A stretch of 49,742 bases of DNA from Candidatus Hadarchaeota archaeon (GTDB taxonomy: Archaea; Hadarchaeota; Hadarchaeia; Hadarchaeales; JAGGTB01), in assembly GCA_964510375.1 (NCBI GenBank), contig CAZEBR010000007.1:4895-54636 (forward strand), written 5' to 3'. The notes beneath the pieces were generated by a model. That model was given only the letters and a program-made list of their open reading frames with translations. It made no database searches and had not been told where the DNA came from. The position numbers and the translations under genes were made by a program. Shown piece after piece: positions 12,243 to 37,260 of this stretch. The stretch's first letter is position 1, and the number at the start of each line of letters is the position of its first letter.

Positions 12243-14419
12243 GCCCACAAGTGTTATCCGCAGGAAATAAACGAGTTCTGAAGTTCGACTGCAAGAACTG
12301 TGGAGAAAAACCCTCCCTCTCCAGCACTCCCTCCTGCATGAAGGACGTGATCGAGAACCTCGAAAAAAATGCAAATGTAGACAAGATCCTCCTAGACGGA
12401 GAATACGTCGAAGAATACCGAGAAAAAGACTTGTCCGTACTGCAAGAATATGTGGAAGCGCTGAAAAACTCGAAGTATCTAGCGCTGAAAACGCTTACTC
12501 CCGATACCTGCACCGACTGCGAGGACGAGAGGGAAGAGAAAATAAGAAAAATCTGGAGTGAGGCGAAAAGCAAACCCGCCCAGGCCAAAGGGAAACTGAA
12601 GCAACTGAAAAAGAAACTAGAGGAAAGTTCTCGGAGAGGCCCCGAAAAGTGCAAGGAGTGCAGGGAGCACTTTCTCAAAGAGGGGATAATGCCCGCCATC
12701 GATATCCTGTCGGACACGAAGATCATGGAAAAAATCGAAGAGGGAAACGGTAAAGCTGACCGATTAAAGGAACTATTTTCTCCCACATCCCGTCCGAGCT
12801 TCCTCAGATCAAAGCTGAAGCTAAAAACTCCGAAAGAAACCGAGTTGGTGGAGGCGTACAGAATCGGAGAAACGAAAATCAGAATTTACCATTCGCCAGA
12901 GGAGCTAGAGTACATTTATTTCATACTCCCCCCGGAATATGACCTTCCTCCGAAACACGTAAGGGTAATACAAGATGTCAAGCGACAACTGCTGGAGACC
13001 CAAGGAAATCTGAATCCGGACTTGGCTCGGAAGGAAATCAGAAAGAAAAGCAAAAGTCTAATAATGGAGACGGCTTTGGAAAGGGGGATAGACCTAGAGG
13101 AAAAAAGGATAGAAGGACTCTCCAAATCCCTAGCTAAATTCACTGCGGGACTAGGAATCATAGAGACCTTGCTATCGGACGACAAGATCCAAGATATCTA
13201 CGTCGACGCGCCCGTAGGAAACAATCCGGTTTACATTTACCACCAGGAATTCGAGGAATGCACTTCTAATATATTCATGACGCCAGAAGACGCTCAAGTC
13301 CTCACTTCGAGGTTCAGAGCAATAAGCGGTAGGCCATTCTCGGAGGCGAATCCCACCCTCGACCTGAACCTGGGAAAGGTCAGAGTGGCCGCGATTCAGG
13401 AGCCCCTCAGCCCCGACGGGCTGGCGATGGCAATCCGTCGACACAAATCTACCCCGTGGACTTTGCCCCTCTTCATAAGCAAAAATTTTCTAACCCCAAA
13501 GGCAGGCGGACTGTTGAGTCTCGCGGTGGACTCTCAGGCTTCCATACTAATAACGGGGAGCAGGGGCGCAGGCAAAACCTCGCTCCTCGGGGCACTGATG
13601 CTCGAACTCCTCCCAAAGTACCGCATACTTTGTCTGGAGGACACCGCCGAACTGCCGATCAAGGAAATGAAATCCCTAGGATACAAGGCACAAAGACTAC
13701 AGATTCGGCCTTCGAGCTCCGGCTCCGAGCTGGAAATGGAAGCCGAGAATGCTCTCAGGTCGGCACTGAGACTCGGGGAATCAGTGCTCGTTATGGGAGA
13801 GGTCAGAGGACCCGAAACAAAGTCACTCTACGAGGCCATGAGGGTCGGTGCCGCCGGAAATTCTGTAATGGGTACGATACACGGGTCCTCCACCAAAGAC
13901 GTATTCGAAAGGGTAGTCTACGATCTCGGAATCCCGCCCAGTTCCTTCAAAGCCACCGATCTGATAGCGGTCGCCTCTCCGATACGGGTCGGGGGAAGCA
14001 TAAAGAGGAAACGAAGGCTGACTCAAGTCAGCGAAGTGGAAAAGGAGTGGCAGGAAGACCCGTTAAAGGAGGACGGTTTTACGGACCTTCTCAGCCATGA
14101 CCCCGAAGAAGACAAACTGAGTGTTACCGATTCGCTCAAAGAAAACGAATCTCACCTTCTAGATTCGATAGCAGAAAAGTGGTCCATGTCCGTGCGAGAA
14201 TTGAAGAAAAATTTGGACCTCCGCACGCGAATTCAAAAGAAGTTAGTCGAGAAGGCCTCCTCCACTGGAAACTCCAGATTGCTCGAGGCCGAGAGGGTCG
14301 TTGAATCGAACTTGACGTTTCACAGACTCCTCGAGGAAGAGCTAGACAAGGGAAGGATCAATTATAGTAGAGTTTTCTCCCGCTGGAAAGACTGGCTCGG
14401 CGAGGTCACCAAGCGATGA
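12239..14419 (+). CDS. FlaI/PilB/VirB11-superfamily secretion ATPase with a ~190-aa Cys-rich N-terminal extension
   Basis: Walker A GSRGAGKTS, Asp box LCLEDTAEL, Walker B VLVMGEVRGPE, His box GTIHG. I prefer TTG 12239 because a GGAGGGGAGGGG run lies 8-19 nt upstream. The ORF track uses GTG 12197. Confidence 0.85.
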   Translation: MSPQVLSAGNKRVLKFDCKNCGEKPSLSSTPSCMKDVIENLEKNANVDKILLDGEYVEEYREKDLSVLQEYVEALKNSKYLALKTLTPDTCTDCEDEREEKIRKIWSEAKSKPAQAKGKLKQLKKKLEESSRRGPEKCKECREHFLKEGIMPAIDILSDTKIMEKIEEGNGKADRLKELFSPTSRPSFLRSKLKLKTPKETELVEAYRIGETKIRIYHSPEELEYIYFILPPEYDLPPKHVRVIQDVKRQLLETQGNLNPDLARKEIRKKSKSLIMETALERGIDLEEKRIEGLSKSLAKFTAGLGIIETLLSDDKIQDIYVDAPVGNNPVYIYHQEFEECTSNIFMTPEDAQVLTSRFRAISGRPFSEANPTLDLNLGKVRVAAIQEPLSPDGLAMAIRRHKSTPWTLPLFISKNFLTPKAGGLLSLAVDSQASILITGSRGAGKTSLLGALMLELLPKYRILCLEDTAELPIKEMKSLGYKAQRLQIRPSSSGSELEMEAENALRSALRLGESVLVMGEVRGPETKSLYEAMRVGAAGNSVMGTIHGSSTKDVFERVVYDLGIPPSSFKATDLIAVASPIRVGGSIKRKRRLTQVSEVEKEWQEDPLKEDGFTDLLSHDPEEDKLSVTDSLKENESHLLDSIAEKWSMSVRELKKNLDLRTRIQKKLVEKASSTGNSRLLEAERVVESNLTFHRLLEEELDKGRINYSRVFSRWKDWLGEVTKR

Positions 14420-16191
14420 AAATCGGGGAGATTTACTGCCAAACGGCCGAGTTTATCGGAAAGTTCGAGCCGTTAAAGGACGCTCAAGACCCGCCGGAAG
14501 AACTCAGGAAAAACCTTCGTTTGTCGGATTTGAAATGTTCGCCGGAGGAGGTAGTAGCCTTGGCCTCTTTCGGAGCCTTGACGGGAGGAATAATCTGCGG
14601 GAGTTTCTTGATCCTAGCCCTCGTCATGAGGCTATCACTGCTAGTACCCGCGGCTACCAGCTCCTTACCGGTGCTCCTCTACTTCTCTCTAGGATCTTAC
14701 CCGGAATGGAAAGCAAAGAAGAGGAGAAAGAAGAGTCTGGAGGGCACTCCAAGACTTATCAGTTACCTGACCGTCGCCCTACAAATAAATCCCAACTTAG
14801 AGAAAGCAACAATTTTTTCGGCGAGCAGAACTGAAAAATCCGTAGGAGACAGCTTTCGGAATGAAATCTGGAAAGCCTGCTTGGGGGTCCACAAAAACGT
14901 CCACGACGCACTATCAAAATTTTCGGAAGGTTGGGGTGCCGAAAATAACGAGCTTAAACGGGCAATAGATCTGATCAAGAGTTCGATATCGGAGAGGAAC
15001 GAGAGAACGAGAAAAAGAATCTTGGATCAAGCTCTGAATACGAGTTTCGAAGGGATAAGAAACCGGATGGAAAAATTTGCGGCGAACGTACAGCTCCCGA
15101 CCACCGTGATATACGGAATCGGAGTTTTATTGCCCCTAGTACTACTGGCCGTGCTCCCCGTAATATCCTCCACCGGTTTCAGGCTAAGCGGGACCCAGCT
15201 GGCCCTCATATACTGCCTCATCCTCCCCCTCGGAGTCTACATTCTCGAAAGGCATATACTTTCGAAGCGGCCCGAACCTTTCTCCAACCCCGAGATACCT
15301 TCGAAGGACGATAGGAGGAAGGCCATCGCGGTATCAGTTTCGGTCCTAATCGCAATTCCATCCGGTGCGATCCTACTCGGGCTTTCGAACACAATGATAA
15401 CTCTAGCAGCACTATGGGGGATTTCCCTTTCCATAACCGCGTTCTGCTATCTTAGCTCGGTTAAGACGTTCGAAGTCCGAGAGATGAACAGAGAACTGGA
15501 GGAGGAATTCTGCGACGCGCTCACCCAGCTCGGCAGCCGTCTGAAGAGTAACATCCCGGTGGAGGAGGCGCTCCTGAAAACCGCCGAAACCACGAAGGGA
15601 GGCCAAATTTCAAAAATTCTCGAGAGAACTTCGACGAACTTGAAAATGGGGGGAATGAGCACGCGTTCCGCATTCTTCGACCCGGAGGACGGTTCCCTGA
15701 AGGAGGTACATTCGAAATCGGTCCTCCATACCTTTCGGATGCTCGTGAGCCTTTTGAATCGTAGCAGCGAAACTGCGGGGGAAGCAATTCTGCAAACCGG
15801 AAAACATCTCAAGAGGATGAACGAGGCAGAAAAGCGGGTGCGCCGCACGCTCCAGAGCGTGATAAGCTCCATGAAATCGGTCGCACTATTTTTCGGCCCC
15901 TTCGTGGCCTCCGTCACGGTCCAGCTCCAGCAGGTGCTCTCGGAAAAGACCCAGAGTATGCCGATTTTCGGAATGAACGTCAGGATATCCTCCCCCACAT
16001 TTCTCGGAGTTCTCGGGACTTACGTCATAATCATCACCCTTCTACTCACGGTCTATACCGTAGAAATTGAAATTGGAGATGATGGTCCCATGAAGCGGAT
16101 GTCAATAGCTCGAGCCCTGCCCACGGCCATCACGGTCTTTACCGCCGGGCTGATCCTGGGCGGGCAACTGATGTCGATCCTGATAGGATAA
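14416..16191 (+). CDS. FlaJ/TadC/PilC-type polytopic membrane platform protein
   Basis: 591 aa with several TM clusters separated by soluble helical domains. ATGA overlap with the ATPase gene. Confidence 0.75.
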   Translation: MKIGEIYCQTAEFIGKFEPLKDAQDPPEELRKNLRLSDLKCSPEEVVALASFGALTGGIICGSFLILALVMRLSLLVPAATSSLPVLLYFSLGSYPEWKAKKRRKKSLEGTPRLISYLTVALQINPNLEKATIFSASRTEKSVGDSFRNEIWKACLGVHKNVHDALSKFSEGWGAENNELKRAIDLIKSSISERNERTRKRILDQALNTSFEGIRNRMEKFAANVQLPTTVIYGIGVLLPLVLLAVLPVISSTGFRLSGTQLALIYCLILPLGVYILERHILSKRPEPFSNPEIPSKDDRRKAIAVSVSVLIAIPSGAILLGLSNTMITLAALWGISLSITAFCYLSSVKTFEVREMNRELEEEFCDALTQLGSRLKSNIPVEEALLKTAETTKGGQISKILERTSTNLKMGGMSTRSAFFDPEDGSLKEVHSKSVLHTFRMLVSLLNRSSETAGEAILQTGKHLKRMNEAEKRVRRTLQSVISSMKSVALFFGPFVASVTVQLQQVLSEKTQSMPIFGMNVRISSPTFLGVLGTYVIIITLLLTVYTVEIEIGDDGPMKRMSIARALPTAITVFTAGLILGGQLMSILIG

Positions 16192-16255: not shown

Positions 16256-16331
16256 GCGACCGTAGTCCAGTGGCTTAAGACACCGGCTTGCCATGCCGGT
16301 AACGCGGGTTCAAATCCCGCCGGTCGCACCA
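16256..16331 (+). tRNA. tRNA-Gly (anticodon GCC) with genomically encoded CCA
   Basis: Hand-folded cloverleaf. Acceptor GCGACCG/CGGTCGC, anticodon stem CCGGC/GCCGG with loop TTGCCAT, T-arm GCGGG-TTCAAAT-CCCGC, discriminator A, then CCA. Confidence 0.9.
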
Positions 16332-27577: not shown

Positions 27578-28936
27578 CTAGTTTTTTAGACTCAGAATCG
27601 GGCTGGGTAGTCTCCCGCCCCTCTTAATTAATTTCTCAGAAGAATAATCACTCAGTTCCATTACCGGGGCACGTCCAAGGAGCCCGCCAAATTCCAAAAC
27701 ATCGCCGGCTTCCTTGCCTTCGGCAGGTATAATTCTGACTCCTTCCGTCTTGTCGTTCACGACGCCTATGGAAAGCTCATCGGCTATGACCGCACTTATC
27801 TTCTCGGCCGAAGTATTACCGGGAACAGCAAACATGTCCAAGCCCACGGAACAGACCGATGTAAGCGCTTCGAGTTTGTCCAGTTTCAAAGCTCCCTTCT
27901 CGACGGCTTCCACCATCCCTAGATCTTCGCTGACTGGAAGGAAAGTTCCACTCAAACCTCCCACGTTCCTGCTCGCCATCGCACCACCCTTCTTGACGGC
28001 ATCCATCAACAGAGCGACCGCCAAGGTCGACCCATGAGCCCCGGGCTTGTCCACACCCATGGCCTCTAAAATTCTCGCCACCGAATCGTTCTCTACCGGA
28101 GAAGGAGCCAAGGATAGATCAACAATTCCGAAGGAAACTCCCAATTCTTCCGCCAACTCCCGACCTATCAGTTGGCCGGCCCTCGTGGTCTTGAAGGCCG
28201 TTCCCTTGATGACCTCCGAAAGTTCAGTAAGGTCGCAGTCAGGATTATTGTCGACGACTTCCCTGACGACCCCTGGACCGCTAATCCCCACGTTAAGTGA
28301 AAATTCGGGTTCCCCGACGCCGTGAAAAGCTCCGGCCATGAAGGGGTTGTCTTCGGGAGCGTTGACGAGTGCGACGAACTTCGCACACCCGGTGCTATTA
28401 TCCGTCTCGCCGGCAACCTCCTTGAGAATCTCACCGAGCTTTATTATCATGTCCATATTCATGCCGGCCCTGTGACTACCCACATTGAGGAACGAACATA
28501 CCCTTTCCGTCTCGGAGAACATTTCGGGCAAAGAATCGACTAGCGCCTCGTCGGCCTCAGTGGCGCCCTTCTGTACCAACGCGCCGAAACCCCCTACGAA
28601 ATCCACGTCCGCATCCCCAACCGCATCGTCCAAAACTTTAGCCATTTCGACCAGCTTTTCCTCAGAAGAGTGCGATTCCGTGATCAGTGATATGGGAGTT
28701 ACCGAGATCCTCTGGTTGACAATCGGGATTCCATATTTGGATTCGAGCTTCTCGGTCTCCTCCACCAGTCGCTCGGAGTTCGTGTTTACCTTCTCGTAAA
28801 CGTTTTCCTTGAACTTGTCGAAGTCGGAATGAACACAGTCCTTCAGATTAATTCCCAGAGTAACAGTCCTTATGTCCAGCCCCTGGAAAAGGGACATTGT
28901 AGCCGTTTCAAATATCTCATCTACAGTGAAAGCCAT
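27578..28936 (-). CDS. UPF0210 / DUF711 family protein
   Basis: About 452 aa. MAFTVDEIFETATM..LDIRTVTLGINL N-terminus is typical of the family. ATG 28936 lies 2 nt after the ACT gene stop (ORF track TTG 28942). Confidence 0.75.
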   Translation of the reverse strand: MAFTVDEIFETATMSLFQGLDIRTVTLGINLKDCVHSDFDKFKENVYEKVNTNSERLVEETEKLESKYGIPIVNQRISVTPISLITESHSSEEKLVEMAKVLDDAVGDADVDFVGGFGALVQKGATEADEALVDSLPEMFSETERVCSFLNVGSHRAGMNMDMIIKLGEILKEVAGETDNSTGCAKFVALVNAPEDNPFMAGAFHGVGEPEFSLNVGISGPGVVREVVDNNPDCDLTELSEVIKGTAFKTTRAGQLIGRELAEELGVSFGIVDLSLAPSPVENDSVARILEAMGVDKPGAHGSTLAVALLMDAVKKGGAMASRNVGGLSGTFLPVSEDLGMVEAVEKGALKLDKLEALTSVCSVGLDMFAVPGNTSAEKISAVIADELSIGVVNDKTEGVRIIPAEGKEAGDVLEFGGLLGRAPVMELSDYSSEKLIKRGGRLPSPILSLKN

Positions 28937-28938
28937 TC

Positions 28939-29217
28939 TCAAACCCTGTGCATAGCTTTGAAAATATCCTCATGTTGAAGCTGAACCCGAAGGCCCATTT
29001 CCTCCCCTATCTCCTGTAAATCTTCCTCTATCTCTTCGAAGGAATAATCGGAATCTTGAATGTCTATGAGCATGCTCATCACAAAATATCCTTCTATCAC
29101 CTTTTGGCTAATGTCCTCAATGTTGATGTCCTTCTCGTAGACGGAATTCGACATCTTGGCGATTATCCCCTTCTGGTCCTCGCCAATCACCGTCACGAAG
29201 CAGAGCTCTTTTCCCAT
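28939..29217 (-). CDS. ACT-domain protein (UPF0237-like)
   Basis: 92 aa. VTVIGEDQKGIIAKMSNSVYEKDINIEDISQ is an ACT beta-alpha-beta pattern. Confidence 0.75.
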   Translation of the reverse strand: MGKELCFVTVIGEDQKGIIAKMSNSVYEKDINIEDISQKVIEGYFVMSMLIDIQDSDYSFEEIEEDLQEIGEEMGLRVQLQHEDIFKAMHRV

Positions 29218-29298: not shown

Positions 29299-30231
29299 TT
29301 AAGGTTTGGAAAAATCCGGCAATGCCTCAATCAACCTATCAGCCAAGTCCACTATTTTGTCCCCGTGCTCCAGCTTGTCCTTCCATTCTTCCGAAATTCT
29401 ATCGGCACCGTGATACGCACCGGCGATGGCGCCGGTCATAGCACCGATGGTGTCCGCGTCCCCGCCCAAGCTTACGGCGTAAAGTACTGCACCCTCAAAG
29501 CTCTCCGGATGAGACAAGAAACAGTAGACGGCGGTCGGTACAGAATTGAAGGCTTCTACACCGTGCCCCAAACTCCTCACGACCTCCGACTTGTCCGGAT
29601 TCGCTTCGAGAAGTTCGCGGACCTTCGAGACCTTTTCCTCGTATTTCTCCTCGCTCACAGCGTTGTCGAGTTCATCCAGAAATGTACTCGTGTCGAGCTC
29701 CGAGGAGGGATCTTCCCTAGCAACAATGCCCACCGAGGTTGCCTGAAGGACGGCTCCATCCCTCCCCAGGCTATGAACATGGGTGATGCTGCTCGATTTT
29801 CGGGCCAGTTTTTTGAGTTCTTCCAAGTCGCCGCAAGCAAAAAGCCCGACGGGAGCAATTCTCATGGACGAACCGTTGCCGTAAGAGCCTGCACCGCCGA
29901 AAAGCTCCTTTGCCGGCTCATCCCACCGAACACCCCCTCCGAGCTTTCTTATGACCTTACTCGACCCCGGTCCGTAGCCTCTGGAGGGATCAAAATATTC
30001 CACCAATTTCTCCGCTAGATTCTGACCATCAAATCCACCCTTCTCCGATAAAGAATCGGCAAGAGCCATCATCTGTTGAGTGTCGTCCGTGTAACGGAGC
30101 AGATCCCTCCCTCGAACGAGATCCCTGATTCTATCAATCTTCACCATCCCACCGCCTTCTCTGGACCTTCCGATCGCATCGCCGAGCCCGGTACCCAGCA
30201 TTCCGCCGCGATAATATGATTTCAAGCTCAT
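29299..30231 (-). CDS. ADP-ribosylglycohydrolase (DraG/ARH family)
   Basis: GTGLGDAIG, RYTDDTQQM, GSYGNGSSMR, GGDADTIGAMTGAIAGAYHG. Confidence 0.85.
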   Translation of the reverse strand: MSLKSYYRGGMLGTGLGDAIGRSREGGGMVKIDRIRDLVRGRDLLRYTDDTQQMMALADSLSEKGGFDGQNLAEKLVEYFDPSRGYGPGSSKVIRKLGGGVRWDEPAKELFGGAGSYGNGSSMRIAPVGLFACGDLEELKKLARKSSSITHVHSLGRDGAVLQATSVGIVAREDPSSELDTSTFLDELDNAVSEEKYEEKVSKVRELLEANPDKSEVVRSLGHGVEAFNSVPTAVYCFLSHPESFEGAVLYAVSLGGDADTIGAMTGAIAGAYHGADRISEEWKDKLEHGDKIVDLADRLIEALPDFSKP

Positions 30232-30920
30232 TCCTCCAAGGAGACAAGTGGAAGGATGTCATCCAGAATAAAATCTACGAATTCGTCCCTTTCAAGGCTA
30301 CTGAACAGAACCACGACGCAACTTCGGGTTACCCCAACGACTATATCCTTCTCCTGAACCTCGAAAACAGCGTACCAGATGTTGCCATGATCCAAGTATT
30401 CCTGGTAGAGCGAGGAATCAGCGAGGGAAGACCCATAGAGGGCGAGCTTACCGACATCGGGAATATCGACATTGTCGAAGTAAATTACCTTGGTGGCCTG
30501 AGGATTGCTCTCATGAAGTTCCTTCAGCGTCTCCTCGGTGATGGTGGCCTCGACGATCGTTCCCTTACTGAGAAATATCGCCTCGCTCAGCTCGTTCGCT
30601 ATCCTGTTCGCCTTGTTCTTCTCCTCCAGTATAATGAGGAAAATTTCGCCCTTTCTCTCCTGAAAAACCAGTCGGGTTTCCCTCGTTTTTGGGACTTCTA
30701 TCTCTCCGTCCCTGTGGTGTATGGTAACGAGGGTGTCATGAGTATAAATCCCGTGCAAAGTTCCGTCATCGGTCTCCAAATCCGTGACTTCAGTTATCAG
30801 ATTACCCTCCCCTGCCTTGGTCTCGTAAGGTTCCTCCTCCCGATAGTCCTTCAGCTTTCGAGCTATGAAGCCCAGATCCGAGTCCTTTCCTATTCGGAAC
30901 ACTTTCGCAGTACTTACCAT
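30228..30920 (-). CDS. hypothetical protein, translationally coupled to the ADP-ribosylglycohydrolase
   Basis: 230 aa with an acidic, balanced composition. ATGA overlap with the downstream gene. The opposite-strand ORF 30216-30983 is L/F/S-rich, as expected for the antisense of an E-rich gene. Confidence 0.65.
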   Translation of the reverse strand: MVSTAKVFRIGKDSDLGFIARKLKDYREEEPYETKAGEGNLITEVTDLETDDGTLHGIYTHDTLVTIHHRDGEIEVPKTRETRLVFQERKGEIFLIILEEKNKANRIANELSEAIFLSKGTIVEATITEETLKELHESNPQATKVIYFDNVDIPDVGKLALYGSSLADSSLYQEYLDHGNIWYAVFEVQEKDIVVGVTRSCVVVLFSSLERDEFVDFILDDILPLVSLEE

Positions 30921-30961
30921 CTTGAAGTTTCACCCGAACAATCTCCCAATCTAACTTCAAG
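30921..30961 (-). promoter_or_regulatory. 9-bp perfect inverted repeat abutting the start codon of the 230-aa gene
   Basis: CTTGAAGTT (30921-30929) and AACTTCAAG (30953-30961) with a 23-nt spacer, directly upstream of ATG 30920 on the minus strand. Confidence 0.35.
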
Positions 30962-31125
30962 AAAGAAAAAACTTTGTATCTAACGCTCCTATCCAACCCG
31001 GAACTTGAAAAGATCACGAACAAAAATGCCGGGAATAAAAAGGGGGTTGAGAGAAATCATTTTTCTCCACGGGGGTTTTAAAATCAGAAGAAAAAGAAGC
31101 TTAAGACTGAAACAACTAGAAGGCG

Positions 31126-33024
31126 ATGAAAATGGCTAGCCAAGGAAATGCGAAAACACACATCAAGGAAATAATATTGGAAAATTTCATGAGCTACGAT
31201 TATGCCCGAATTCCTCTAAAACCGGGTCTGAACGTCATAAGCGGGCCTAACGGCGCCGGTAAGTCCTCGATCTTGCTCGCCCTTTCAGTGGCGTTGGGAC
31301 AGTCACATACAGAAAGGTCCCGGAAGCTGAGCGATTTGATAAGGAGGGGGGAAGAAATGGCAAGAGTGAGCGTAGTCTTCGACAACTCGCCAGTCGACGG
31401 TAGGCGCCCGATATCGGACGCCGATACCGACTCTTACGTCCTTTCGAGATACCTGCAGGAGGACGGGACCTACTGGCACGAGGCTAACTATGAGACTGTT
31501 ACTAAGGAAGAGGTCAAAAGGATACTATCTCAACTCTCCATAAATCCGGACAATATGCTCATCGTAATGCACCAGGGGATGATCGATGTCTTCGGAGCGA
31601 TCGACGCTCAGGAGAGGTTGAAGACGGTGGAGGAAGCCGTCGGGCTGAGCGACTATAGAAACAGAATATTTGAGGCGCAGGAAAATCTCTCCCACAAGAT
31701 GAGCGAAGAGGAATCGATCAACGAAATGCTTCAAGAAGCCCAAGAAACTCTGGATCACTGGGAGGAGGAATATGAGCGCTACAAGAAGAAGCAGAATCTC
31801 CTCGAAAAAAAGGAGGATCTAGAAAGAGAGTACGCATGGGCCAAGTGGTGGAGGCAGAAAGAAAGGGTCGATAAACTCGATTCGAAGGTCAGGGAAAAGA
31901 AAGAGGACCTCAAACAAATCGAAAGGGATCTCGAGAAAACTAAAGAGAAGAAAAAGGACTCCAAAGAGAAACTGGACGGATTAGAACAGAAGTTTGAAGA
32001 TCTCTATCGGAACCTCGTCCACCACGAAAAGGAAAAAAGCCGGGCCGAAGCGGAACTCGACTTAATCGAAAAAATTGGAAGATCGAAATTGGAAGGCTTA
32101 GCCGAAAACTCGAGAGATCCGGAAGAGGCCGTAGAGAAAGCCGAAGAAGAAATCGAGGAAAACAGAAACGAAATAGCCCACACCAAGGAGGAGCGAAACA
32201 GCGAAAGAGAAAGTTACATCGATCACAACATCAGGGAAGCCATTCTTGGATTCCGAAGAGAACGGACGGAAGAAAAAATTGACGACCTCAAAAAGGATCT
32301 GAGGAAAAACAAGCGGGAACTTGAAGAACTGGAGGCGGAGGCCAAAGAAAAAGGAAGTAAGATGAGGACGGACAGGAAATCTAGAGAAATCCTCGAAGAA
32401 ATCCGCGTCACCAATGCAAAGTTGGCGGGTTTGGATGACGTGTCAAAAGAATCTGAAAAGATGTATCAGGATCACAAGGAGAGGCTGGAAGAGTTAGAGG
32501 AAAAAGCGAAAGAAGCCGAAGAAAATCGAAAGAAGGCCTTAGAAAAGCTGGAACTCAGACAGGAAAAGTGGAGAAGCGAAATTCAAGAACTTTTGAAAAA
32601 AGTCAGGGAAACCTACCGGCAGATTTTGGAAAGAGTAAACGCCGTGGGGGACGTGAGAATGATAAACCCCAATAACATTGAGGAGTCAGGTCTCGAACTC
32701 ACCGTTGGATTTAGGGGAGCGGAACCACAAACCCTTGACGCCTATACTCAAAGCGGTGGAGAAAGATCAACTTCAATAATGTGCTTCCTTCTCGCACTCC
32801 AACAGCACATAAAATCCCCAATCAGGGCACTAGACGAATTCGAGTTACACATGGACCCTCGAAACCGACAGATGATGATGAGAGAGCTTCTGAACCTGAT
32901 GGAGGAGAGCAACAGCCAATACTTGGTAATAACCCCAGGAAGGTTAGTAGAGATCGAAAAAGTTCCCAACGTAATCGCAGTCCAAAACTCGGCCGGTTCT
33001 TCGGAGGTAAAGGTGGCTACCTAA
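31126..33024 (+). CDS. short SMC-like ATPase with Smc5/6-type head motifs, no hinge, no zinc hook
   Basis: Walker A GPNGAGKSS (31243-31269), Q-loop VMHQG, about 340 aa of coiled coil, signature QSGGERSTSIMCFLLAL (32749-), Walker B SPIRALDEFELHMDPRNR (32827-32856). Confidence 0.85.
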   Translation: MKMASQGNAKTHIKEIILENFMSYDYARIPLKPGLNVISGPNGAGKSSILLALSVALGQSHTERSRKLSDLIRRGEEMARVSVVFDNSPVDGRRPISDADTDSYVLSRYLQEDGTYWHEANYETVTKEEVKRILSQLSINPDNMLIVMHQGMIDVFGAIDAQERLKTVEEAVGLSDYRNRIFEAQENLSHKMSEEESINEMLQEAQETLDHWEEEYERYKKKQNLLEKKEDLEREYAWAKWWRQKERVDKLDSKVREKKEDLKQIERDLEKTKEKKKDSKEKLDGLEQKFEDLYRNLVHHEKEKSRAEAELDLIEKIGRSKLEGLAENSRDPEEAVEKAEEEIEENRNEIAHTKEERNSERESYIDHNIREAILGFRRERTEEKIDDLKKDLRKNKRELEELEAEAKEKGSKMRTDRKSREILEEIRVTNAKLAGLDDVSKESEKMYQDHKERLEELEEKAKEAEENRKKALEKLELRQEKWRSEIQELLKKVRETYRQILERVNAVGDVRMINPNNIEESGLELTVGFRGAEPQTLDAYTQSGGERSTSIMCFLLALQQHIKSPIRALDEFELHMDPRNRQMMMRELLNLMEESNSQYLVITPGRLVEIEKVPNVIAVQNSAGSSEVKVAT

Positions 33025-33025
33025 A

Positions 33026-33826
33026 ATGGTCAGCAAAAAGAAGAAGAGAGAACTGATGAACAGAATCATCGACCTCGCCGAATCCGTAAACGACAGGGAG
33101 GTCGACCCGTTTGAAGTCGAAGTGTCCGATTTCCTCGAAAGACTGGACGAGATTTTTCCCGAGGAGGAAGACCCCGAGGAACTGTTACTCGACATGAGAG
33201 CGATGCTAGGACTGACGGACGTAGTCTCCCAGCAGGAGGACTGGATAAAACACAAATCTTCCTTGCTTCACTTCGACCCGATGCTAGTCAACTGGAAGGT
33301 CAAGGAGCTTACGAAAAAACAGCTGGCCTACGTGCTCGTTGATTCCTGGCACCCAACCGTGGAGATGGAATCCATATCGAAGCCCGGTATAGAAGAGGCC
33401 ATGGAGTACTGGGAAAATCTGGAGCCTATGTCGGAGCGTGGTGCGGAGCTGGAGACTGAGGAAGTTTCGCCGGGAGCGATAAGCATGGAAGAGCTATCCG
33501 AATCGGGGTTTCAAAGCAAGGAAGATTTCGACGAGGAAGTAGAGGAAAAGTGGGAAGAACTCAAGAAAGCGACCGACGAGGAAAACAAAATTTCCTACTG
33601 GGAATTCATCGACTCGGAAAACTATAAGGAGACCATTCGAAACGCCTGGCTGACCAGCTTTCTCATAAGCTACGGCTACGCCTCCGTCGAAATGGACCCC
33701 TTGGAAGAAAAAATTACGCTGAAGGCCAGAGAAACCCAGGAGACCCCGAGGGAGAAAGACGGTAAATCCTTGCCGATAGCAATCTCGTACGACGACTGGG
33801 AGGAGAGGAGGAACCGAAATGAGTGA
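33026..33826 (+). CDS. kleisin-like (ScpA/Nse4-like) acidic protein
   Basis: Starts 1 nt after the SMC-like stop. EVDPFEVEVSDFLERL and DWIKHKSSLL N-terminal helices, an acidic linker, and a C-terminal NAWLTSFLISYGYASVEMDPLEEKITL winged-helix-like block. Confidence 0.55.
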   Translation: MVSKKKKRELMNRIIDLAESVNDREVDPFEVEVSDFLERLDEIFPEEEDPEELLLDMRAMLGLTDVVSQQEDWIKHKSSLLHFDPMLVNWKVKELTKKQLAYVLVDSWHPTVEMESISKPGIEEAMEYWENLEPMSERGAELETEEVSPGAISMEELSESGFQSKEDFDEEVEEKWEELKKATDEENKISYWEFIDSENYKETIRNAWLTSFLISYGYASVEMDPLEEKITLKARETQETPREKDGKSLPIAISYDDWEERRNRNE

Positions 33827-34370
33827 AGAAGAGGAAAAAATCGAGGAGATAAGAGAAAAGATGGAGAGGGCCGCACAGCTCATCCTATTCAAGAGGCACC
33901 GGGAACCCGGAGCCAAATCATGGGAGCTGAAAAAGGTCCTAGGTAAGAGATATCCCGAAATAGTCGATATGCTCGATCAGGAGCTCCAGAAAATAGGTCT
34001 GACCATCAAGGAAATAGGGAAGGACGAGGACGGGCCCACTCGATACTACGCCACTATGAAGGGTCATCCCCGCCTTTCGGACAGAACCTTCGGCTGGAGA
34101 ATCGACGACATGGCATCCCTCACAATCGCACTCTCATACATACAAGCAAAGAGAGGAAAGGCCCCCTTAGAAGAAGTCAAGGAACTATTGAGGGAAAAGC
34201 TACCCAAATGGCGCGTGGACAGGAATATAAACAGATTCACAAAGATGGGCTATCTCTCCGAAGATGACGGGATGCTCCAAATGGACTGGCGGGCAAAAGC
34301 GGAAATCGACCAAGAGAAAATGCTGGAAGGCCTGCTGAGCAAAGAAGTAGAAGAATCGGAAGAAAACTGA
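33819..34370 (+). CDS. tandem winged-helix (KITE: ScpB/Nse3-MAGE-like) protein
   Basis: 8-nt overlap with the preceding gene. AAQLILFKRHREPGAKSWELKKVLGKRYPEIVDMLDQELQKIGLTIKEI and SLTIALSYIQAKRGKAPLEEVKELL..FTKMGYL give two wH-like repeats. Confidence 0.5.
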   Translation: MSEEEEKIEEIREKMERAAQLILFKRHREPGAKSWELKKVLGKRYPEIVDMLDQELQKIGLTIKEIGKDEDGPTRYYATMKGHPRLSDRTFGWRIDDMASLTIALSYIQAKRGKAPLEEVKELLREKLPKWRVDRNINRFTKMGYLSEDDGMLQMDWRAKAEIDQEKMLEGLLSKEVEESEEN

Positions 34371-34398: not shown

Positions 34399-37260
34399 CT
34401 AAGATCCCTTGTACCTGCTGAGCAATGATTTCTTTTCCTCTTCCACGACTAAATCCAGAAATTTGTCCGTGATCTCATCTTTTTCCTCCAGAATTCTCTG
34501 TGCTCCCTTCGGAGTGATGCCCTTACCAACTAGGGCCGCGGCCGCCACCTTTCCGTATTCCGAGACTAGATCAGAAGTCCTTTCAATCTTTTTCCACGTC
34601 TTGCTATCCTCGGCCTTCTTGGAACCATCTTTTACCCTATTGAGAGTCCTCCTGACCGATCTTACTTCCTCCCCCACCAACCCGATCCTCTCGGAACCAC
34701 AATTAGGACACGAAGGAGGTTCGCTCAACTCGTGTACTTCCATTATTTCCGTCCAATCCTTGCATTCGGCACAGGCAAAGGTCCGTTCCTCACTCAGCAG
34801 CCTCGATCTGACGGAGGCAAGTATCAGACGTTTCATCCTCTTGGGCGAAACGGGTTCGAACGTCAAGGAGCTCTCTTCCCACGCGGGTTCCGAAATAGGG
34901 GAAGGGCCCGACAGGACCCCCAGGGAATCAATTGAGATCTCCCCGGACTCTATCCTTTTGAGGACCTCAAGTGACTTAGGGAGGTCCAAGTCCTTTCTCA
35001 CGACTTCCTTAAACGTTTCATCGTAGACGGGGGTATTCTTGAGGCCTTTAATCAACTGTTCTACCTCCGAACTTGTCATTTCGGCATCGGACTCCAAAGT
35101 TCCCATCCTACGGGCTATCTGGACTATCCTCCATTTGAAGAAGCGGCTGTCCTCGATAACGTTCTCCAGAGTCCGTTCGAAATCCCTCTCCATCTCCCCC
35201 TTCAGTATTAGCTCGATCTCGTCGGGCGTAAGTCTCTCCGACCTTATCAATATCCTGTACGGATCGATGGTGACCGCAACGGACTCGCCCAATTCGTCGG
35301 CCGCCAGCCTAGCGATAAATCTAGCGAGAGTCCTGTTGACCAAGGTCCCGAAACATGCGTGGACCACGACGGTGTCCTCGGCCTTCTCAAGGACGACTCT
35401 GTCATCCTTAGGCACCGGATATTCCTCCTCGTAGTGATCCTTGACGGGTTGAAGCGATCTTTTCATTGCCCCCTCCTCGAATTCCCAGGACTCGGAAACG
35501 GAATTCAGCGCATCGGAAAAGTCGTTATTCTCGAGCAAGTCCACAAATTCTCCCCTCAGGCTCCCGACTTCTTGCGCCACGGAATAGGGGACCGGTATCT
35601 CCTCACCGACCCAAGAGGGAACCGCACCGACCGGATCGTCTACGGGCTTCACGAATACCTTGTCCTGGTACACCTGGACTATCTTCCAGAGAGAACCACC
35701 CATCACAAATTTCGATCCGGGCTCGCCGTATTCCGCTACGAAGGGCTCGTCCAAAACCCCGACCGCCTCGTCCTTGGTATCGTCGACGACCACGTACTGT
35801 TTGATCTCGGGAATCATTGAAAGGGACCCGAAGTAGTAATCGAAAATCCTACTATTACCGCTGGGGCGGGAGAACACCTCCTCGTCTTCTCGCAGCCAAG
35901 CCAACCTCCTAGTCATGTCCTCCATAAACTTCAACACATCGAGCAGCTCCTCCTTCTCGAGATTTCGGAACGGGTAGGCGCGCTTGACTATCTGATAGGC
36001 GTCCTCGACGTTCCAGTCCTTCGCAGCGACCATCATTCCCACGAGTTCGTGGGAGAGCACGTCCAGAGGTTTTTTCGGAATTTTAACGGGTTCAAGCTCC
36101 CTTTTCCTGGAGCGCTCCGATATCACGACCGACTCCACACCATCGGTGGGGTCCTTGACAATAATCCTTCCCTTCGACATTTCCGTTATCTTATGGCCAC
36201 TCCTGCCCACCCTCTGAAGGAGCCTCGCGACCTGGCGGGGAGAATTGTACTGGATACACAAATCAATTTTACCGACGTCGAGACCGAGTTCCATGGAAGA
36301 AGTACATATCGCCCCTTTGAGATCGCCATTTTTTAGCCTCTCCTCCGTCCTCCTTCTGGCAAATGTAGAGAGCGAACCGTGATGTATACTGACGGGAAAA
36401 TCAATATCCCACATCTTAAACCTGCTGGCAAGCACTTCCGACATCGGTCTAGTGTTTGTAAAAATAAGGGTCGATTCGTGGTCCTCGATAAGGTCTCTCA
36501 TCACGCGAAGCCTCGCTGCAACCTCCGGATAGGTGTAAATTTGAGAGGAGAGGGCCTCATCCTCCTCAGTCACGGCCGGATACAGAACATCGAGATCTAT
36601 ATCCCTAACCATCGAAACATCCACCACTTCGCAGTCTCTGTTCGATCCGACCAAGAAATTGGCAACTTCGTCAGGGGACCCGACCGTAGCCGACAGACCG
36701 ATTATCTGGAAATCGCCTCCTTTCAAGCGGCGCATCCTCTCGAGGGAAAGAGAAAGCTGGGCTCCCCGCTTGTTTCCGGCGAGTTCATGGACTTCGTCTA
36801 TAACGACCCACTTCACCGCCGCGGCGTGTCTGCTTATTCTCTTACCCACGAGGAGAAGCTGGAACGTTTCCGGAGTAGTTATCAGCACGTCCGGAGGACT
36901 CAAAGCCTGTTTCCTCCTCTCACGATCGGGAGTGTCACCGTGCCTTACCGAGACCTTTAAATCCAGTTGCCTGCACCACCACTTCAGGCGGTCTAACATG
37001 TCTCTGTTCAGAGCCCTGAGGGGTGTCACGTAGATTAGCTTTATACCGTCACTTCGGGAGCTTTTCAGAACCTTGTTTAGAATCGGTAGAATTGCTGCTT
37101 CGGTTTTACCCGTTCCAGCCGGAGCTATCAGTAAAGTATTTTTACCGTCTATAATAGGTGGTATGCCCTCTTTCTGGGGCAGAGTGGGTTTTTCAAATCC
37201 TCTCTCCTTGAGCAGATTTCGGAGGGGCTTGGCCAAGCTATCAAACACTTCTTCGGACAT
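34399..37260 (-). CDS. lhr: Lhr-type large superfamily-2 helicase with C-terminal zinc ribbon
   Basis: 953 aa. Motif I APAGTGKTEAA, motif II VIDEVHEL, SATVG, HHGSLS, LQRVGRSGH. Extended Lhr-core C-terminal domains. CAECKD..CPNCGS. Confidence 0.85.
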   Translation of the reverse strand: MSEEVFDSLAKPLRNLLKERGFEKPTLPQKEGIPPIIDGKNTLLIAPAGTGKTEAAILPILNKVLKSSRSDGIKLIYVTPLRALNRDMLDRLKWWCRQLDLKVSVRHGDTPDRERRKQALSPPDVLITTPETFQLLLVGKRISRHAAAVKWVVIDEVHELAGNKRGAQLSLSLERMRRLKGGDFQIIGLSATVGSPDEVANFLVGSNRDCEVVDVSMVRDIDLDVLYPAVTEEDEALSSQIYTYPEVAARLRVMRDLIEDHESTLIFTNTRPMSEVLASRFKMWDIDFPVSIHHGSLSTFARRRTEERLKNGDLKGAICTSSMELGLDVGKIDLCIQYNSPRQVARLLQRVGRSGHKITEMSKGRIIVKDPTDGVESVVISERSRKRELEPVKIPKKPLDVLSHELVGMMVAAKDWNVEDAYQIVKRAYPFRNLEKEELLDVLKFMEDMTRRLAWLREDEEVFSRPSGNSRIFDYYFGSLSMIPEIKQYVVVDDTKDEAVGVLDEPFVAEYGEPGSKFVMGGSLWKIVQVYQDKVFVKPVDDPVGAVPSWVGEEIPVPYSVAQEVGSLRGEFVDLLENNDFSDALNSVSESWEFEEGAMKRSLQPVKDHYEEEYPVPKDDRVVLEKAEDTVVVHACFGTLVNRTLARFIARLAADELGESVAVTIDPYRILIRSERLTPDEIELILKGEMERDFERTLENVIEDSRFFKWRIVQIARRMGTLESDAEMTSSEVEQLIKGLKNTPVYDETFKEVVRKDLDLPKSLEVLKRIESGEISIDSLGVLSGPSPISEPAWEESSLTFEPVSPKRMKRLILASVRSRLLSEERTFACAECKDWTEIMEVHELSEPPSCPNCGSERIGLVGEEVRSVRRTLNRVKDGSKKAEDSKTWKKIERTSDLVSEYGKVAAAALVGKGITPKGAQRILEEKDEITDKFLDLVVEEEKKSLLSRYKGS

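Follow-up and report, generated by a model that had tools for sequence, protein, structure and literature searches.

A conserved archaeal operon with a compact, hinge-less SMC5/6-related ATPase and its putative Nse4-type kleisin and Nse1/3-type kite

Introduction

SMC5/6-related SMC proteins of archaea were defined by Yoshinaga & Inagaki 2021 (PMC8665677), and an operon joining such an SMC to an Nse4-related kleisin and an Nse1/3-related kite was described by van Hooff, Raas, Tromer & Eme (bioRxiv 10.1101/2024.01.07.573240), whose examples include a Hadesarchaea WYZ-LMO6 gene cluster with SMC, kleisin and kite on one strand. In the Hadarchaeota rows consulted of the table in 10.1101/2024.01.07.573240, SMC5_SMC6_related is 1, Nse1_Nse3_related is scored and Nse4_related is 0, and the authors state that kleisins were downsampled. 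The locus studied here had originally been put forward as a candidate for an undescribed complex, a claim that these two studies overturn. While the operon type is already catalogued, its hinge-less form seems to have gone unremarked: the literature we found nowhere discusses a hinge-less state of an archaeal SMC5/6-related SMC, or the Pfam hinge retained by an Asgard relative. The same prediction held that no experiment has addressed the dedicated kleisin and kite set of such SMCs, and our search of the searchable literature likewise found none for any family member.

Here we analyze a 49,742-nucleotide stretch of DNA (the window) from an uncultured brine archaeon of the MSBL1 type, a group with Hadarchaeota as its sister lineage and mentioned in neither PMC8665677 nor 10.1101/2024.01.07.573240. 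We consider it probable that three genes of the window encode an archaeal SMC5/6-related complex, in which an SMC ATPase is joined by a kleisin of Nse4 type and a kite of Nse1/3 type, and which would act as an ATP-gated DNA clamp or short tether.

Results

Three packed genes form one unit

The operon and the region upstream of it comprise the following features.

30921..31125, no strand assigned: divergent intergenic region of 205 bp, presumed from sequence only to be the operon promoter region
31126..33024, + strand: gene 1, 632 aa, compact hinge-less SMC5/6-related SMC ATPase
33026..33826, + strand: gene 2, 266 aa, putative Nse4-type (delta) kleisin
33819..34370, + strand: gene 3, 183 aa, predicted Nse1/Nse3/MAGE-type kite subunit

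The three genes are packed on the + strand as originally described, with a 1-nt gap between genes 1 and 2 (TAA-a-ATG, 33022-33028) and an 8-nt overlap between genes 2 and 3 (ATGAGTGA, 33819-33826). Shine-Dalgarno-like GGAGG-type runs precede the starts of genes 2 and 3, and no terminator-like sites were found on the + strand inside the three-gene unit. Gene 1 has a second in-frame ATG at 31132 and may start there, since its product is listed with 630 aa in the database. The presumed promoter region contains a TATA-like A/T-rich element, TTTTAAAA, at 31076-31083.

Gene 1 has an intact SMC head with Smc5/6 affinity

31243..31269, + strand: Walker A / P-loop GPNGAGKSS, aa 40-48, identified in the sequence
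31564..31578, + strand: Q-loop VMHQG, aa 147-151, identified in the sequence, Q150 invariant
32749..32769, + strand: ABC signature QSGGERS, aa 542-548, identified in the sequence, S543, G544, G545 and E546 invariant
32821..32856, + strand: Walker B and D-loop IRALDEFELHMD, aa 566-577, identified in the sequence, D570, E571, H575 and D577 invariant
32917..32940, + strand: QYLVITPG, aa 598-605, at the switch/H-loop position, from alignment to yeast and human SMC5

All motifs quoted earlier for genes 1 and 2 were located, and the catalytic motifs of gene 1, a true SMC-type ATPase, are intact. G40, P41, N42, G43, G45 and K46 are invariant in 21 diverse members of the gene 1 family, and the Walker A, Q-loop, signature and Walker B residues are unchanged in members down to 26% identity. 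The signature aligns with TQSGGER of yeast and human SMC5 and the Walker B/D-loop with DE[IF]xxxMDxxN of Smc5. Canonical Smc has a His at the switch/H-loop position; QYLVITPG has Thr-Pro there, as in Smc5 (SQYFLITP), and its Q598 and P604 are invariant.

Gene 1 matched Pfam SMC_N (4.6e-20) and, among solved structures searched by sequence, Smc5 (3e-29), Pyrococcus Smc (8e-26) and SMC6 (3e-20). Its C-terminal head half, which shares the motifs, scored 59 bits against Smc5, 43 against SMC6 and 34 against Pyrococcus Smc. When 1.84 billion representatives were scanned with gene 1, the best ~98 matches constituted its own archaeal family; the long matches that followed were, where named by their source, eukaryotic SMC5-type or Asgard proteins, and the nearest named relatives outside the family were eukaryotic SMC5. 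A distance tree of heads, drawn without SMC1-4, SMC6 and Rad50 and with eukaryotic and Asgard sequences chosen by similarity to the query, split the gene 1 group from canonical archaeal and bacterial Smc in 100/100 bootstraps. The Smc5/6 affinity first proposed from motifs is thus supported by the best solved structure, the nearest named relatives and the head split. Against NCBIfam, gene 1 scored 211 bits with SMC_prok_A (cut-off 729). The best Foldseek matches of its AlphaFold2 model (mean pLDDT 77) were SMC heads with coiled coil and joint, led by Pyrococcus Smc 5xei; this comparison did not separate Smc5/6 from other SMCs, and Rad50 first appeared at rank 24.

A short coiled-coil arm replaces the hinge

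31648..32634, + strand: antiparallel coiled-coil arm, aa 175-503, from AlphaFold2 secondary structure
32077..32118, + strand: arm-tip turn GRSKLEGLAENSRD, aa 318-331, standing where a hinge domain would be

The most unusual feature of gene 1, missing from the original prediction, is the absence of a hinge. The protein has neither hinge domain nor zinc hook; in place of a hinge, a helix of ~143 residues runs into a 14-residue turn and back through a return arm. A Pfam SMC_hinge search of gene 1 gave no match; the same model scored 43.6 bits with an Asgard relative (P0349) and 125 bits with a canonical archaeal Smc. A CxxC hook is impossible because C553 is the sole cysteine. E, K, R and L make up 57% of arm residues. 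The coiled coil had been called uninterrupted, which the AlphaFold2 model contradicts: the outgoing helix (aa 175-317) is followed by the turn, and the return strand is interrupted in a joint-like manner at aa 410-418 and 435-441, leaving helices at aa 332-409, 419-434 and 442-503. The pLDDT falls below 50 at aa 325-329 of the arm tip, and aa 301-360 are the least conserved part of gene 1 (column identity 0.45-0.52).

Gene 2 resembles Nse4 and gene 3 a tandem winged-helix kite

33593..33805, + strand: Nse4_C-like C-terminal winged-helix domain of gene 2, aa 190-260, from alignment to yeast Nse4 268-353 and human EID3 203-316

The gene 2 product (pI 4.4) has a conserved N-terminal helical region, an acidic linker and a C-terminal winged helix, and contains the motifs DPFEVEV, DWIKHKSSLL and NAWLTSFLISYGYASVEMDPLEE. 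It matched Pfam Nse4_C at aa 190-260 with 29.1 bits (gathering score 26), as did all 28 of the 28 family members tested. The only solved structures matched by the family profile at E < 0.01 were EID3/NSE4B (6e-6) and Nse4 (2e-5), the remaining matches being unrelated proteins with E of at least 0.018. These sequence matches support a kleisin of Nse4 type, whose C-terminal winged helix is presumed to be the SMC-cap-binding end. The earlier reading of gene 2 as a kleisin stands on these Nse4 matches. The ScpA-like N-terminus that came with that reading was not confirmed: there was no ScpA match, an hhalign comparison with the protein presumed to be the kleisin of a neighboring canonical archaeal Smc reached a probability of 0.2, and the N-terminal half had no detectable likeness to any known kleisin N-domain.

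The AlphaFold2 model of gene 3 (mean pLDDT 79.8) contains two winged-helix-like modules. Its top Foldseek matches were 5hvq_C and 7dg2_A/C (MAGE-G1-NSE1; Nse1-Nse3-Nse4; E 3e-7 to 8e-7, TM 0.56-0.61), followed by MukE, MAGE-A and the JetABC chain 8dk1_F. The modeled fold thus supports a tandem winged-helix kite closest to Nse1/Nse3/MAGE, agreeing with the two winged helices, the first of ScpB / Nse3-MAGE pattern, predicted from sequence. This assignment leans on the predicted fold, since matches in the family were all weak (Pfam MAGE in 20 of 32 members, SMC_Nse1 in 12 of 32) and gene 3 itself matched neither Pfam MAGE nor Nse1. Gene 3 has no RING because it encodes zero cysteines. In UniRef, homologues are named 'Non-...' for gene 2 and 'MAGE...' for gene 3.

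The operon is conserved across phyla in a chromosomal setting

30228..30920, - strand: divergent protein of unknown function, 230 aa, recurrent neighbor, possibly associated
34399..37260, - strand: convergent Lhr-type DNA helicase, 953 aa (Pfam DEAD, Helicase_C, WH_Lhr, DEAD_assoc), recurrent neighbor with a possible functional link

The Hadarchaeum operon has the same gene order (634/264/206 aa) and also an 8-nt kleisin/kite overlap, and the SMC-kleisin-kite order recurs in 16 further loci. The three-gene linkage, a point on which the original prediction depended, is thus kept across several phyla, which argues against a chance arrangement. Family members across phyla share 41-54% identity over full length. 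In keeping with a core-genome character, the operon is chromosomal, apparently single-copy and flanked by housekeeping genes; the kleisin was found in none of 2.9 million viral contigs, 72,556 plasmids and 50,697 phages.

Two neighbors recur. Homologues of the 230-aa protein, which has no Pfam, NCBIfam or PDB relative, occur upstream of the SMC in divergent orientation in Hadarchaeum (46% identity), Bathyarchaeia (40%) and loci L166 and L167, yet only 8 of 41 loci anchored on its gene contain the operon, so the linkage is not obligate. The Lhr gene ends 28 nt from the kite gene. In L086, L140, L006 (Thermofilales) and L168 (Nitrososphaerota), the kite is directly followed by a convergent Lhr, which lies two genes off in L167, and Lhr adjoins the operon in MSBL1, Hadarchaeota-like, Thermofilales and Nitrososphaerota loci. 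This adjacency is no more than a hint of a repair link, because it occurs in ~6 of the ~15 loci having enough downstream sequence. The recurrence of Lhr and the 230-aa protein beside the operon across phyla is discussed nowhere in the literature we found.

Discussion

Analogy with Smc-ScpAB and the Smc5/6 core makes it likely that the complex contains the single SMC twice, the kleisin once and the kite twice. The two SMC heads would engage around two ATP. The kleisin would bind one SMC at the neck through its N-terminal helices and the other at the cap through its C-terminal winged helix, and would carry a kite dimer on its acidic middle. Head engagement driven by ATP would clamp DNA atop the heads, beneath the kleisin/kite module. 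The arm is only ~140 residues, roughly 20 nm, long and its tip is a short variable turn with no hinge or zinc hook; the SMC pair is therefore probably held together mainly by heads and kleisin, perhaps with added arm-arm contacts. In genome maintenance, be it replication or repair, such a complex may clamp DNA in an ATP-gated manner or tether it over short range, and long-arm loop extrusion would not be expected of it.

The operon might instead encode the main chromosome-organizing SMC complex, condensin-like and possibly replacing Smc-ScpAB. Its highly conserved, apparently single-copy place amid housekeeping genes would suit that role, canonical smc, scpA and scpB are absent from the 49.7-kb window (a statement about the window, not the whole genome), and most archaea retain only one of the two SMC types (PMC8665677). 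We nevertheless regard this as rather unlikely: a ScpB-like kite is scored in every Hadarchaeota row consulted in 10.1101/2024.01.07.573240, co-existence of both SMC operons is a documented state nearby, since Hadesarchaeon WYZ-LMO6 carries a canonical and an SMC5/6-related one, and a ~20-nm hinge-less arm would make an improbable chromosome-scale loop extruder. Surveillance against plasmids or viruses, in the manner of Wadjet/JetABCD, Lamassu or viral restriction by eukaryotic Smc5/6, is harder still to credit. Short hinge-less SMC-like ATPases are typical of defense systems, and gene 1 matches PADLOC mad3 (6e-28), LmuB (1.2e-24, nearly full length) and AriA; eukaryotic Smc5/6 also restricts viral and extrachromosomal DNA (PMC9458440). 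However, gene 1 scores far higher with the NCBIfam SMC model (211 bits) than with these PADLOC models (85-96 bits), and genes 2 and 3 had zero PADLOC matches, so nothing in the partners matches JetA/JetB, MksE/F or LmuA/LmuC and the Wadjet/MksBEF analogy once drawn for this locus finds no sequence support there. No nuclease or other effector gene lies within or adjoining the operon, its gene order and neighbors are kept across phyla, unlike a defense island, and the kleisin is missing from the viral, plasmid and phage collections.

It is very improbable that gene 1 belongs to the Rad50 or ASRP (ClsN/Sph) type and works without a kleisin, with genes 2 and 3 as unrelated neighbors. The ~630 aa and hinge-less coiled coil of gene 1 do resemble ASRP and short Rad50-like proteins, and it has weak NCBIfam matches of 76 bits with Rad50 and 65.7 bits with ASRP, but these scores are far under the cut-offs of 700 and 300, which also removes the ground for the Sph/ASRP type originally suggested. 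Gene 1 lacks a CxxC zinc hook and has no Mre11 gene in its neighborhood, Rad50 ranks 24 or lower in Foldseek, and the triad is kept across phyla, with genes 2 and 3 translationally coupled to gene 1 and independently matching Nse4 and Nse1/3. The cut-off scores and partner identities effectively refute this identity.

An SMC5/6-related complex, our preferred reading, agrees with the described archaeal SMC5/6-related complex in its three subunit types, gene order and orientation, and in an assumed homodimeric SMC. Both PMC8665677 and 10.1101/2024.01.07.573240 stripped the coiled coil before analysis and left SMC length and hinge uncommented, whereas the window SMC is 632 aa and hinge-less; the account in 10.1101/2024.01.07.573240 is purely phylogenomic and, in the rows consulted, gives Nse4_related a 0, while the window kleisin is clearly of Nse4_C type. 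With the eukaryotic Smc5/6 core (PDB 7tve, 7qcd, 7dg2) the operon shares the head motifs TQSGGER, DE[IF]xxxMDxxN and SQYxxITP, an Nse4_C winged helix in the kleisin and a tandem winged-helix kite, and by analogy it would share the same ATP-dependent DNA-clamping head module. In contrast to the eukaryotic Smc5-Smc6 heterodimer, a homodimer is presumed here because there is one SMC gene; one kite gene lacking cysteine and RING stands in place of Nse1 and Nse3, no Nse2 or Nse5/6 candidates were found near the operon, and the eukaryotic SMCs are ~1,050-1,130 aa compared to 632 aa, no hinge and an arm of ~140 residues per strand. Smc-ScpAB has the same logic of SMC homodimer, kleisin and kite dimer, and head, coiled coil and joint are nearest 5xei, but the partners here have matches to Nse4 and Nse1/3 and none to ScpA or ScpB, SMC_hinge is absent and the heads split 100/100. 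Short hinge-less SMC-like ATPases also include ASRP (coalescin ClsN, Sph1/2), Rad50, Lamassu LmuB and a hinge-less actinobacterial SMC (PMC12153180); we found no mention of a kleisin for ASRP-type or short SMC-like families, and the word is absent from the ASRP paper and PMC12153180. The window SMC differs from these ATPases in having a kleisin and a kite of its own, the feature that marks true SMC complexes.

Operon organization and conservation

The original prediction described three tightly packed genes on the plus strand, and their sizes, coordinates and junctions were confirmed by ORF calling and by the sequence itself:

31126-33024, plus strand: gene 1, SMC ATPase of 632 aa (ORF call)
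33026-33826, plus strand: gene 2, predicted Nse4-type kleisin of 266 aa (ORF call and Pfam Nse4_C)
33819-34370, plus strand: gene 3, predicted kite of 183 aa (ORF call and predicted fold)

At the sequence level, genes 1 and 2 meet at TAA-a-ATG, genes 2 and 3 overlap by 8 nt (ATGAGTGA), and the starts of genes 2 and 3 are each preceded by a GGAGG-like Shine-Dalgarno run. A terminator scan detected no terminator-like site on the plus strand inside the three-gene unit. For gene 1, a second in-frame ATG at 31132 is a possible alternative start.

The closest homologues of genes 1-3 belong to single-cell genomes labeled "candidate division MSBL1 archaeon" (67-87% identity for the named ones), followed by a tier from Hadesarchaea/Hadarchaeota at 52-60% identity. 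Contigs of Hadarchaeum yellowstonense carry genes of 634, 264 and 206 aa arranged alike, and there too kleisin and kite overlap by 8 nt; the order SMC, kleisin, kite was found in 17 of the 21 loci we collected for the family, that is, the archaeal compact SMC5/6-related SMCs akin to gene 1 with their kleisin and kite kin. This recurrence argues that the arrangement is not due to chance; the linkage is conserved across phyla, one of the points on which the original prediction had said it could fail.

Family placement of gene 1

The head of gene 1 contains Walker A, Q-loop, signature and Walker B motifs and is split by an antiparallel coiled coil, as seen in the sequence, the AlphaFold2 model and the Foldseek matches; every motif quoted in the original prediction lies at its expected residues. 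The catalytic residues are invariant among members down to 26% identity, indicating that the ATPase is under selection. Gene 1 matched Pfam SMC_N at 4.6e-20, and its scores against the NCBIfam models SMC_prok_A (211 bits, cut-off 729), Rad50 (best model 76 bits, cut-off 700) and ASRP (NF045487; 65.7 bits, cut-off 300) all fell far under the cut-offs, so that it is not a canonical Smc, a Rad50 or an ASRP/Sph-type protein. The suggested kinship with Sph/ASRP-type proteins was thereby lost, and the firm Rad50/SbcC placement that would have counted against the prediction did not appear.

Several lines of evidence converged on Smc5/6. In sequence searches against solved structures, gene 1 matched yeast Smc5 best (3e-29), then Pyrococcus Smc (8e-26), human SMC5 and SMC6. 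The C-terminal half of the head alone scored 59 bits with Smc5, 43 with human SMC6 and 34 with Pyrococcus Smc. The alignment showed motifs common to gene 1 and Smc5/6 heads (TQSGGER, DE[IF]xxxMDxxN and SQY[LF]xITP). HMMER, run without an index over 1.84 billion representative proteins, ranked the archaeal family on top (~98 matches, E 1e-202 to 1e-38), followed after a sharp drop by proteins of 1,010-1,260 aa, of which those named were eukaryotic SMC5-type or Asgard. Finally, in a tree of the heads, all 100 of 100 bootstraps placed the family, its Asgard relatives and eukaryotic SMC5 on one side and canonical Smc of archaea and bacteria on the other; this is a neighbor-joining distance tree over 282 head columns, with eukaryotic and Asgard sequences picked by similarity and without SMC1-4, SMC6 or Rad50. 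Taken together, structure matches, head-half scores, library scan and head tree point to Smc5/6, and by sequence comparison the head of gene 1 appears to group with eukaryotic SMC5/SMC6, apart from canonical Smc, in agreement with the affinity originally proposed.

An ORF and Pfam scan detected no second SMC_N ORF within the window; the operon holds a single SMC gene. When genome contigs were scanned with a broad SMC alignment keyed on Walker A, the matches listed were mostly canonical bacterial SMCs, the family being represented by two collected loci (L006 and L007).

Gene 1 lacks a hinge

The AlphaFold2 model of gene 1 (mean pLDDT 77, above 85 over most of the arm) was divided as follows:

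aa 1-172: N-terminal half of the head
aa 175-317: outgoing arm, one helix
aa 318-331: turn of 14 residues at the arm tip, low confidence
aa 332-409, 419-434 and 442-503: return helices with joint-like breaks
aa 506-632: C-terminal half of the head

The coiled coil had been described as uninterrupted, a description that the turn and the joint-like breaks of the model do not bear out. Pfam SMC_hinge found no match in gene 1, and the 14 residues between outgoing and return helices leave no room for such a domain. The same Pfam model scored on a canonical archaeal Smc (L084) and, above threshold at 43.6 bits, on an 835-aa Freyarchaeum (Asgard) relative (P0349), which shows that it is able to detect a hinge in this clade. 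Gene 1 is thus missing the globular hinge dimerization domain, a feature of SMC proteins sensu stricto. The arm tip is also its least conserved stretch. A Rad50-type CxxC zinc hook is excluded, since the sole cysteine, C553, lies in the head. Foldseek searches with the model returned a Pyrococcus Smc head with coiled coil and joint (5xei) as the best match, followed by SMC3, Smc6 and Smc5, with Rad50 first appearing at rank 24. As modeled, gene 1 is structurally an SMC, although Foldseek does not tell Smc5/6, Smc and cohesin apart.

Compact proteins are the norm for the clade: ~60 clusters at 50% identity have lengths of 550-685 aa, with members from MSBL1, Hadarchaeota, Bathyarchaeia, Nitrososphaerota, Thermofilales and "Thaumarchaeota". 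Longer relatives include a Thorarchaeota protein of 1,126 aa and four from Bathyarchaeota (P0279, P0286, P0299 and P0324; 982-1,047 aa). The latter carry ~390 extra central residues, inserted between the equivalents of aa ~300 and ~370 of gene 1, in which Pfam detected neither a hinge nor any other domain; they may form an extended coiled coil or a divergent hinge. In the head tree, the long Bathyarchaeota forms nest within the compact ones and the hinge-bearing Asgard relatives lie near the base, a topology that hints at hinge loss followed by arm re-expansion inside one clade.

One Nitrososphaerota-like locus (L003, 4073-6001) has its SMC, upstream of kleisin and kite, called as four fragments of 102, 89, 49 and 260 aa, although tblastn still spans query aa 13-629; the gene is a pseudogene unless the breaks stem from a frameshift-prone assembly.

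Kleisin and kite partners

Gene 2 has the layout of a kleisin: its N-terminal region is conserved and is joined by an acidic linker to a C-terminal winged helix. The protein is acidic overall (pI 4.4). It matched Pfam Nse4_C over aa 190-260 with 29.1 bits (gathering score 26), as did all 28 of the family members tested. Searched against solved structures, the family profile matched only human EID3/NSE4B (6e-6) and yeast Nse4 (2e-5) at E <0.01; ScpA was not among the matches. Relatives at 35-41% identity were found in Nitrososphaerota and Bathyarchaeia. The profile matches indicate that gene 2 is an Nse4-related kleisin adjoining the SMC. The proposed kleisin identity therefore held, while the ScpA-like N-terminus proposed with it found no support: the N-terminal region has no detectable relative by Pfam, among family members or by hhalign, so its neck-binding role is one that we infer.

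The sequence of gene 3 on its own gave no significant match in Pfam, NCBIfam, PADLOC or sequence searches. Members of its family matched weakly to Pfam MAGE (20 of 32) and SMC_Nse1 (12 of 32). Its AlphaFold2 model (mean pLDDT 79.8) consists of two winged-helix modules, and its three highest-ranking Foldseek matches belong to the MAGE-G1-NSE1 and Nse1-Nse3-Nse4 complexes (E 3e-7 to 8e-7, TM 0.56-0.61), with MukE, MAGE-A and a JetABC chain (8dk1_F) lower down. Gene 3 contains no cysteine and hence no RING. The predicted structure is that of a kite fold, nearest to the Nse1/3 type; of the two likenesses originally proposed, the paired winged helices of Nse3/MAGE type stood and ScpB found no match. 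With hhalign, a single sequence against a low-diversity profile gave a probability of 0.2 both for the N-terminal half of gene 2 versus the presumed kleisin beside canonical archaeal Smc and for gene 3 versus ScpB at that position, which makes both weak negatives.

Two loci, from Bathyarchaeia (L001, 4676-5911) and Nitrososphaerota (L166, 6703-7947), encode an unknown protein of 411 and 414 aa, respectively, between an SMC of 639/640 aa and an Nse4-like kleisin, and no kite was detected within their flanks. This protein may stand in for the kite there; the idea that it is a fused kite was rejected, as it matched neither the kite profile nor Pfam or NCBIfam.

Genomic neighborhood

Features of the window outside the operon were as follows:

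12197-16191, plus strand: ATPase paired with a membrane protein, T2SSE/T2SSF-type, resembling the assembly genes of archaeal type IV pili/archaella
16256-16331: tRNA-Gly(GCC), following that pair, the only tRNA gene in the window
27578-29217, minus strand: DUF711 protein (454 aa) and small ACT-domain protein (92 aa), near the 230-aa gene
29299-30231, minus strand: ADP-ribosylglycohydrolase, 310 aa, its start overlapping the end of the 230-aa gene by 4 nt
30228-30920, minus strand: unknown acidic 230-aa protein, divergent upstream of the SMC (sequence)
34399-37260, minus strand: Lhr-type helicase, 953 aa (Pfam DEAD, Helicase_C, WH_Lhr, DEAD_assoc), convergent, 28 nt from the end of the kite gene

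The flanking genes are ordinary chromosomal ones (arginyl-tRNA synthetase, TiaS, RNA 3'-phosphate cyclase, aminotransferases, a type IV pilus-like ATPase, sensor kinases). A convergent Lhr of ~955 aa also adjoins the kite in MSBL1-like (L086), Hadarchaeota-like (L140), Thermofilales (L006, 4128-6779) and Nitrososphaerota (L168, 9387-12260) loci, and lies two genes away from it in L167 (11235-14126); the flanks of the Hadarchaeum loci and of several other operons do not contain it. As a weak pointer, this adjacency may reflect a functional link to DNA repair or fork processing.

Homologues of the 230-aa protein occupy the same position in Hadarchaeum (L004, 5228-5932; 46%) and Bathyarchaeia (L001, 717-1412; 40%), as well as in L166 (2781-3476) and L167 (3575-4264), with 38-46% identity across these loci. 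A divergent 230-aa gene upstream of the compact SMC thus spans MSBL1, Hadarchaeota and TACK-lineage (Bathyarchaeia/Nitrososphaerota) loci. Single sequences and a 21-sequence profile found no relatives in Pfam, NCBIfam or the PDB. The gene is common in metagenomes, where 441 stretches carrying it were confirmed. The operon was present at 8 of the 41 metagenome loci anchored on this gene with at least 2.5 kb upstream, where no neighbor recurred more often, and the gene precedes five of eight assessable operons not selected through it. It is a recurrent neighbor, not an obligate partner; the occurrence at 8 of 41 anchored loci leaves a role as obligate fourth subunit unsupported.

Relation to previously described archaeal SMCs

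An "SMC5/6-related aSMC" was defined in TACK, Euryarchaeota, Asgard and Thermoplasmatota archaea by Yoshinaga & Inagaki (2021, PMC8665677). In many archaea, van Hooff et al. (2024/25, bioRxiv 10.1101/2024.01.07.573240) showed a pair of complete SMC operons, of which one combines an SMC5/6-related SMC with a kleisin related to Nse4 and a kite resembling Nse1/3. In the accessible rows of their Supplementary Table 3, Hadarchaeota genomes are entered as both SMC5_SMC6_related and Nse1_Nse3_related, and Hadesarchaea WYZ-LMO6 has a canonical and an SMC5/6-related operon, the latter ordered as in the window. UniRef names of gene 2 homologues begin "Non-...", those of gene 3 homologues "MAGE...". Since the SMC type and its operon are both in these papers, the system is of a known kind: the original observation was real and its protein assignments essentially right, while its description as an undescribed archaeal SMC complex is superseded by these computational descriptions.

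The accessible text of the two papers mentions neither MSBL1 nor protein length nor the hinge; in both, the coiled coil was taken out before analysis. The only paper on a "hinge-less SMC" that we found concerns marine Actinobacteria (PMC12153180), and our literature search turned up no experiments on any of the archaeal members. The hinge-less architecture, undiscussed in the two papers, and the Lhr synteny beside it are of moderate residual interest.

Possible mechanism and alternatives

By analogy with Smc-ScpAB and the Smc5/6 core, the SMC would form a homodimer in which the kleisin makes an asymmetric bridge between the ATP-engaged heads; the kleisin would carry a kite dimer, and DNA would be clamped on the heads. 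The arm measures ~20 nm and its tip is a variable turn, so the far end of the SMC lumen may stay open. We propose that the complex would act as an ATP-gated clamp or short tether in genome maintenance, not as a long-range loop extruder. A further, tentative possibility is that the family represents a natural minimal, hinge-independent Smc5/6 machine, which would keep the kleisin and kite head module whole and dispense with the hinge and most of the arm. Because the head module would be kept without a hinge, its mechanism would need no hinge-closed SMC ring and could instead use an ATP-gated head/kleisin/kite clamp or a tip-to-tip tether. Such a machine may be part of a conserved genome-maintenance module with the adjacent Lhr and ~230-aa protein in several phyla.

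Three alternatives rank lower than an ATP-gated clamp or tether in genome maintenance. We consider it unlikely that the operon encodes the main condensin-like chromosome complex. A defense system is very unlikely, given that genes 2 and 3 have no PADLOC match, that no effector gene is present and that no kin of the kleisin were found on viral contigs, plasmids or phages. We give next to no credence to gene 1 as a Rad50/ASRP-like protein working without a kleisin, since its scores lie under the NCBIfam cut-offs and it has no zinc hook.

One 632-aa SMC, one 266-aa kleisin and one 183-aa kite without cysteine-rich accessory domains make up a compact version of the Smc5/6 core, which is attractive for reconstituting and solving the structure of DNA clamping by heads, kleisin and kites of the Smc5/6 type. 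Because close hinge-bearing relatives exist, the family can also serve as a natural experiment on the contributions of the hinge and long arms. Lhr adjacency in distant archaeal phyla hints at an ancestral role of the Smc5/6 lineage in repair or replication-fork processing. As the source organism is uncultured, Thermofilales/Nitrososphaerota relatives or heterologous expression provide alternative routes for testing.

Comparison with known systems

The eukaryotic Smc5/6 holocomplex contains an Smc5/Smc6 heterodimer from two paralogous genes and two kites, Nse1 with its RING and Nse3/MAGE, whereas the window encodes one SMC and one cysteine-free kite; no candidates resembling the Nse2 SUMO ligase or the Nse5/6 loader were seen among Pfam-annotated neighbors. 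Canonical Smc-ScpAB differs in the low SMC_prok_A score of gene 1 and in the missing ScpA/ScpB matches of its partners. Rad50/SbcC has a CxxC hook and an Mre11/SbcD partner, whereas gene 1 has no hook and no Mre11-like neighbor; membership in Rad50 or ASRP (ClsN/Sph) is ruled out by the NCBIfam cut-offs together with the absent zinc hook.

The original prediction also offered an analogy to Wadjet/MksBEF, which we discard: JetC of PADLOC scored only 29.5 bits on gene 1, on the coiled coil, and no nuclease gene (JetD) is adjacent. The kite fold predicted for gene 3 resembles MukE and the JetABC chain less closely than Nse1/3. For Lamassu, the LmuB model matched gene 1 over nearly its full length (85.5 bits), but the operon has no equivalent of the LmuA effector or LmuC, and genes 2 and 3 match Nse4 and Nse1/3 instead. 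A Wadjet or Lamassu reading fails on the same partner, effector and mobile-element evidence as defense in general. What the operon does combine is an Smc5/6-like SMC head, an Nse4-related kleisin and a predicted Nse1/3-related kite encoded side by side, the composition of an archaeal SMC5/6-related complex.
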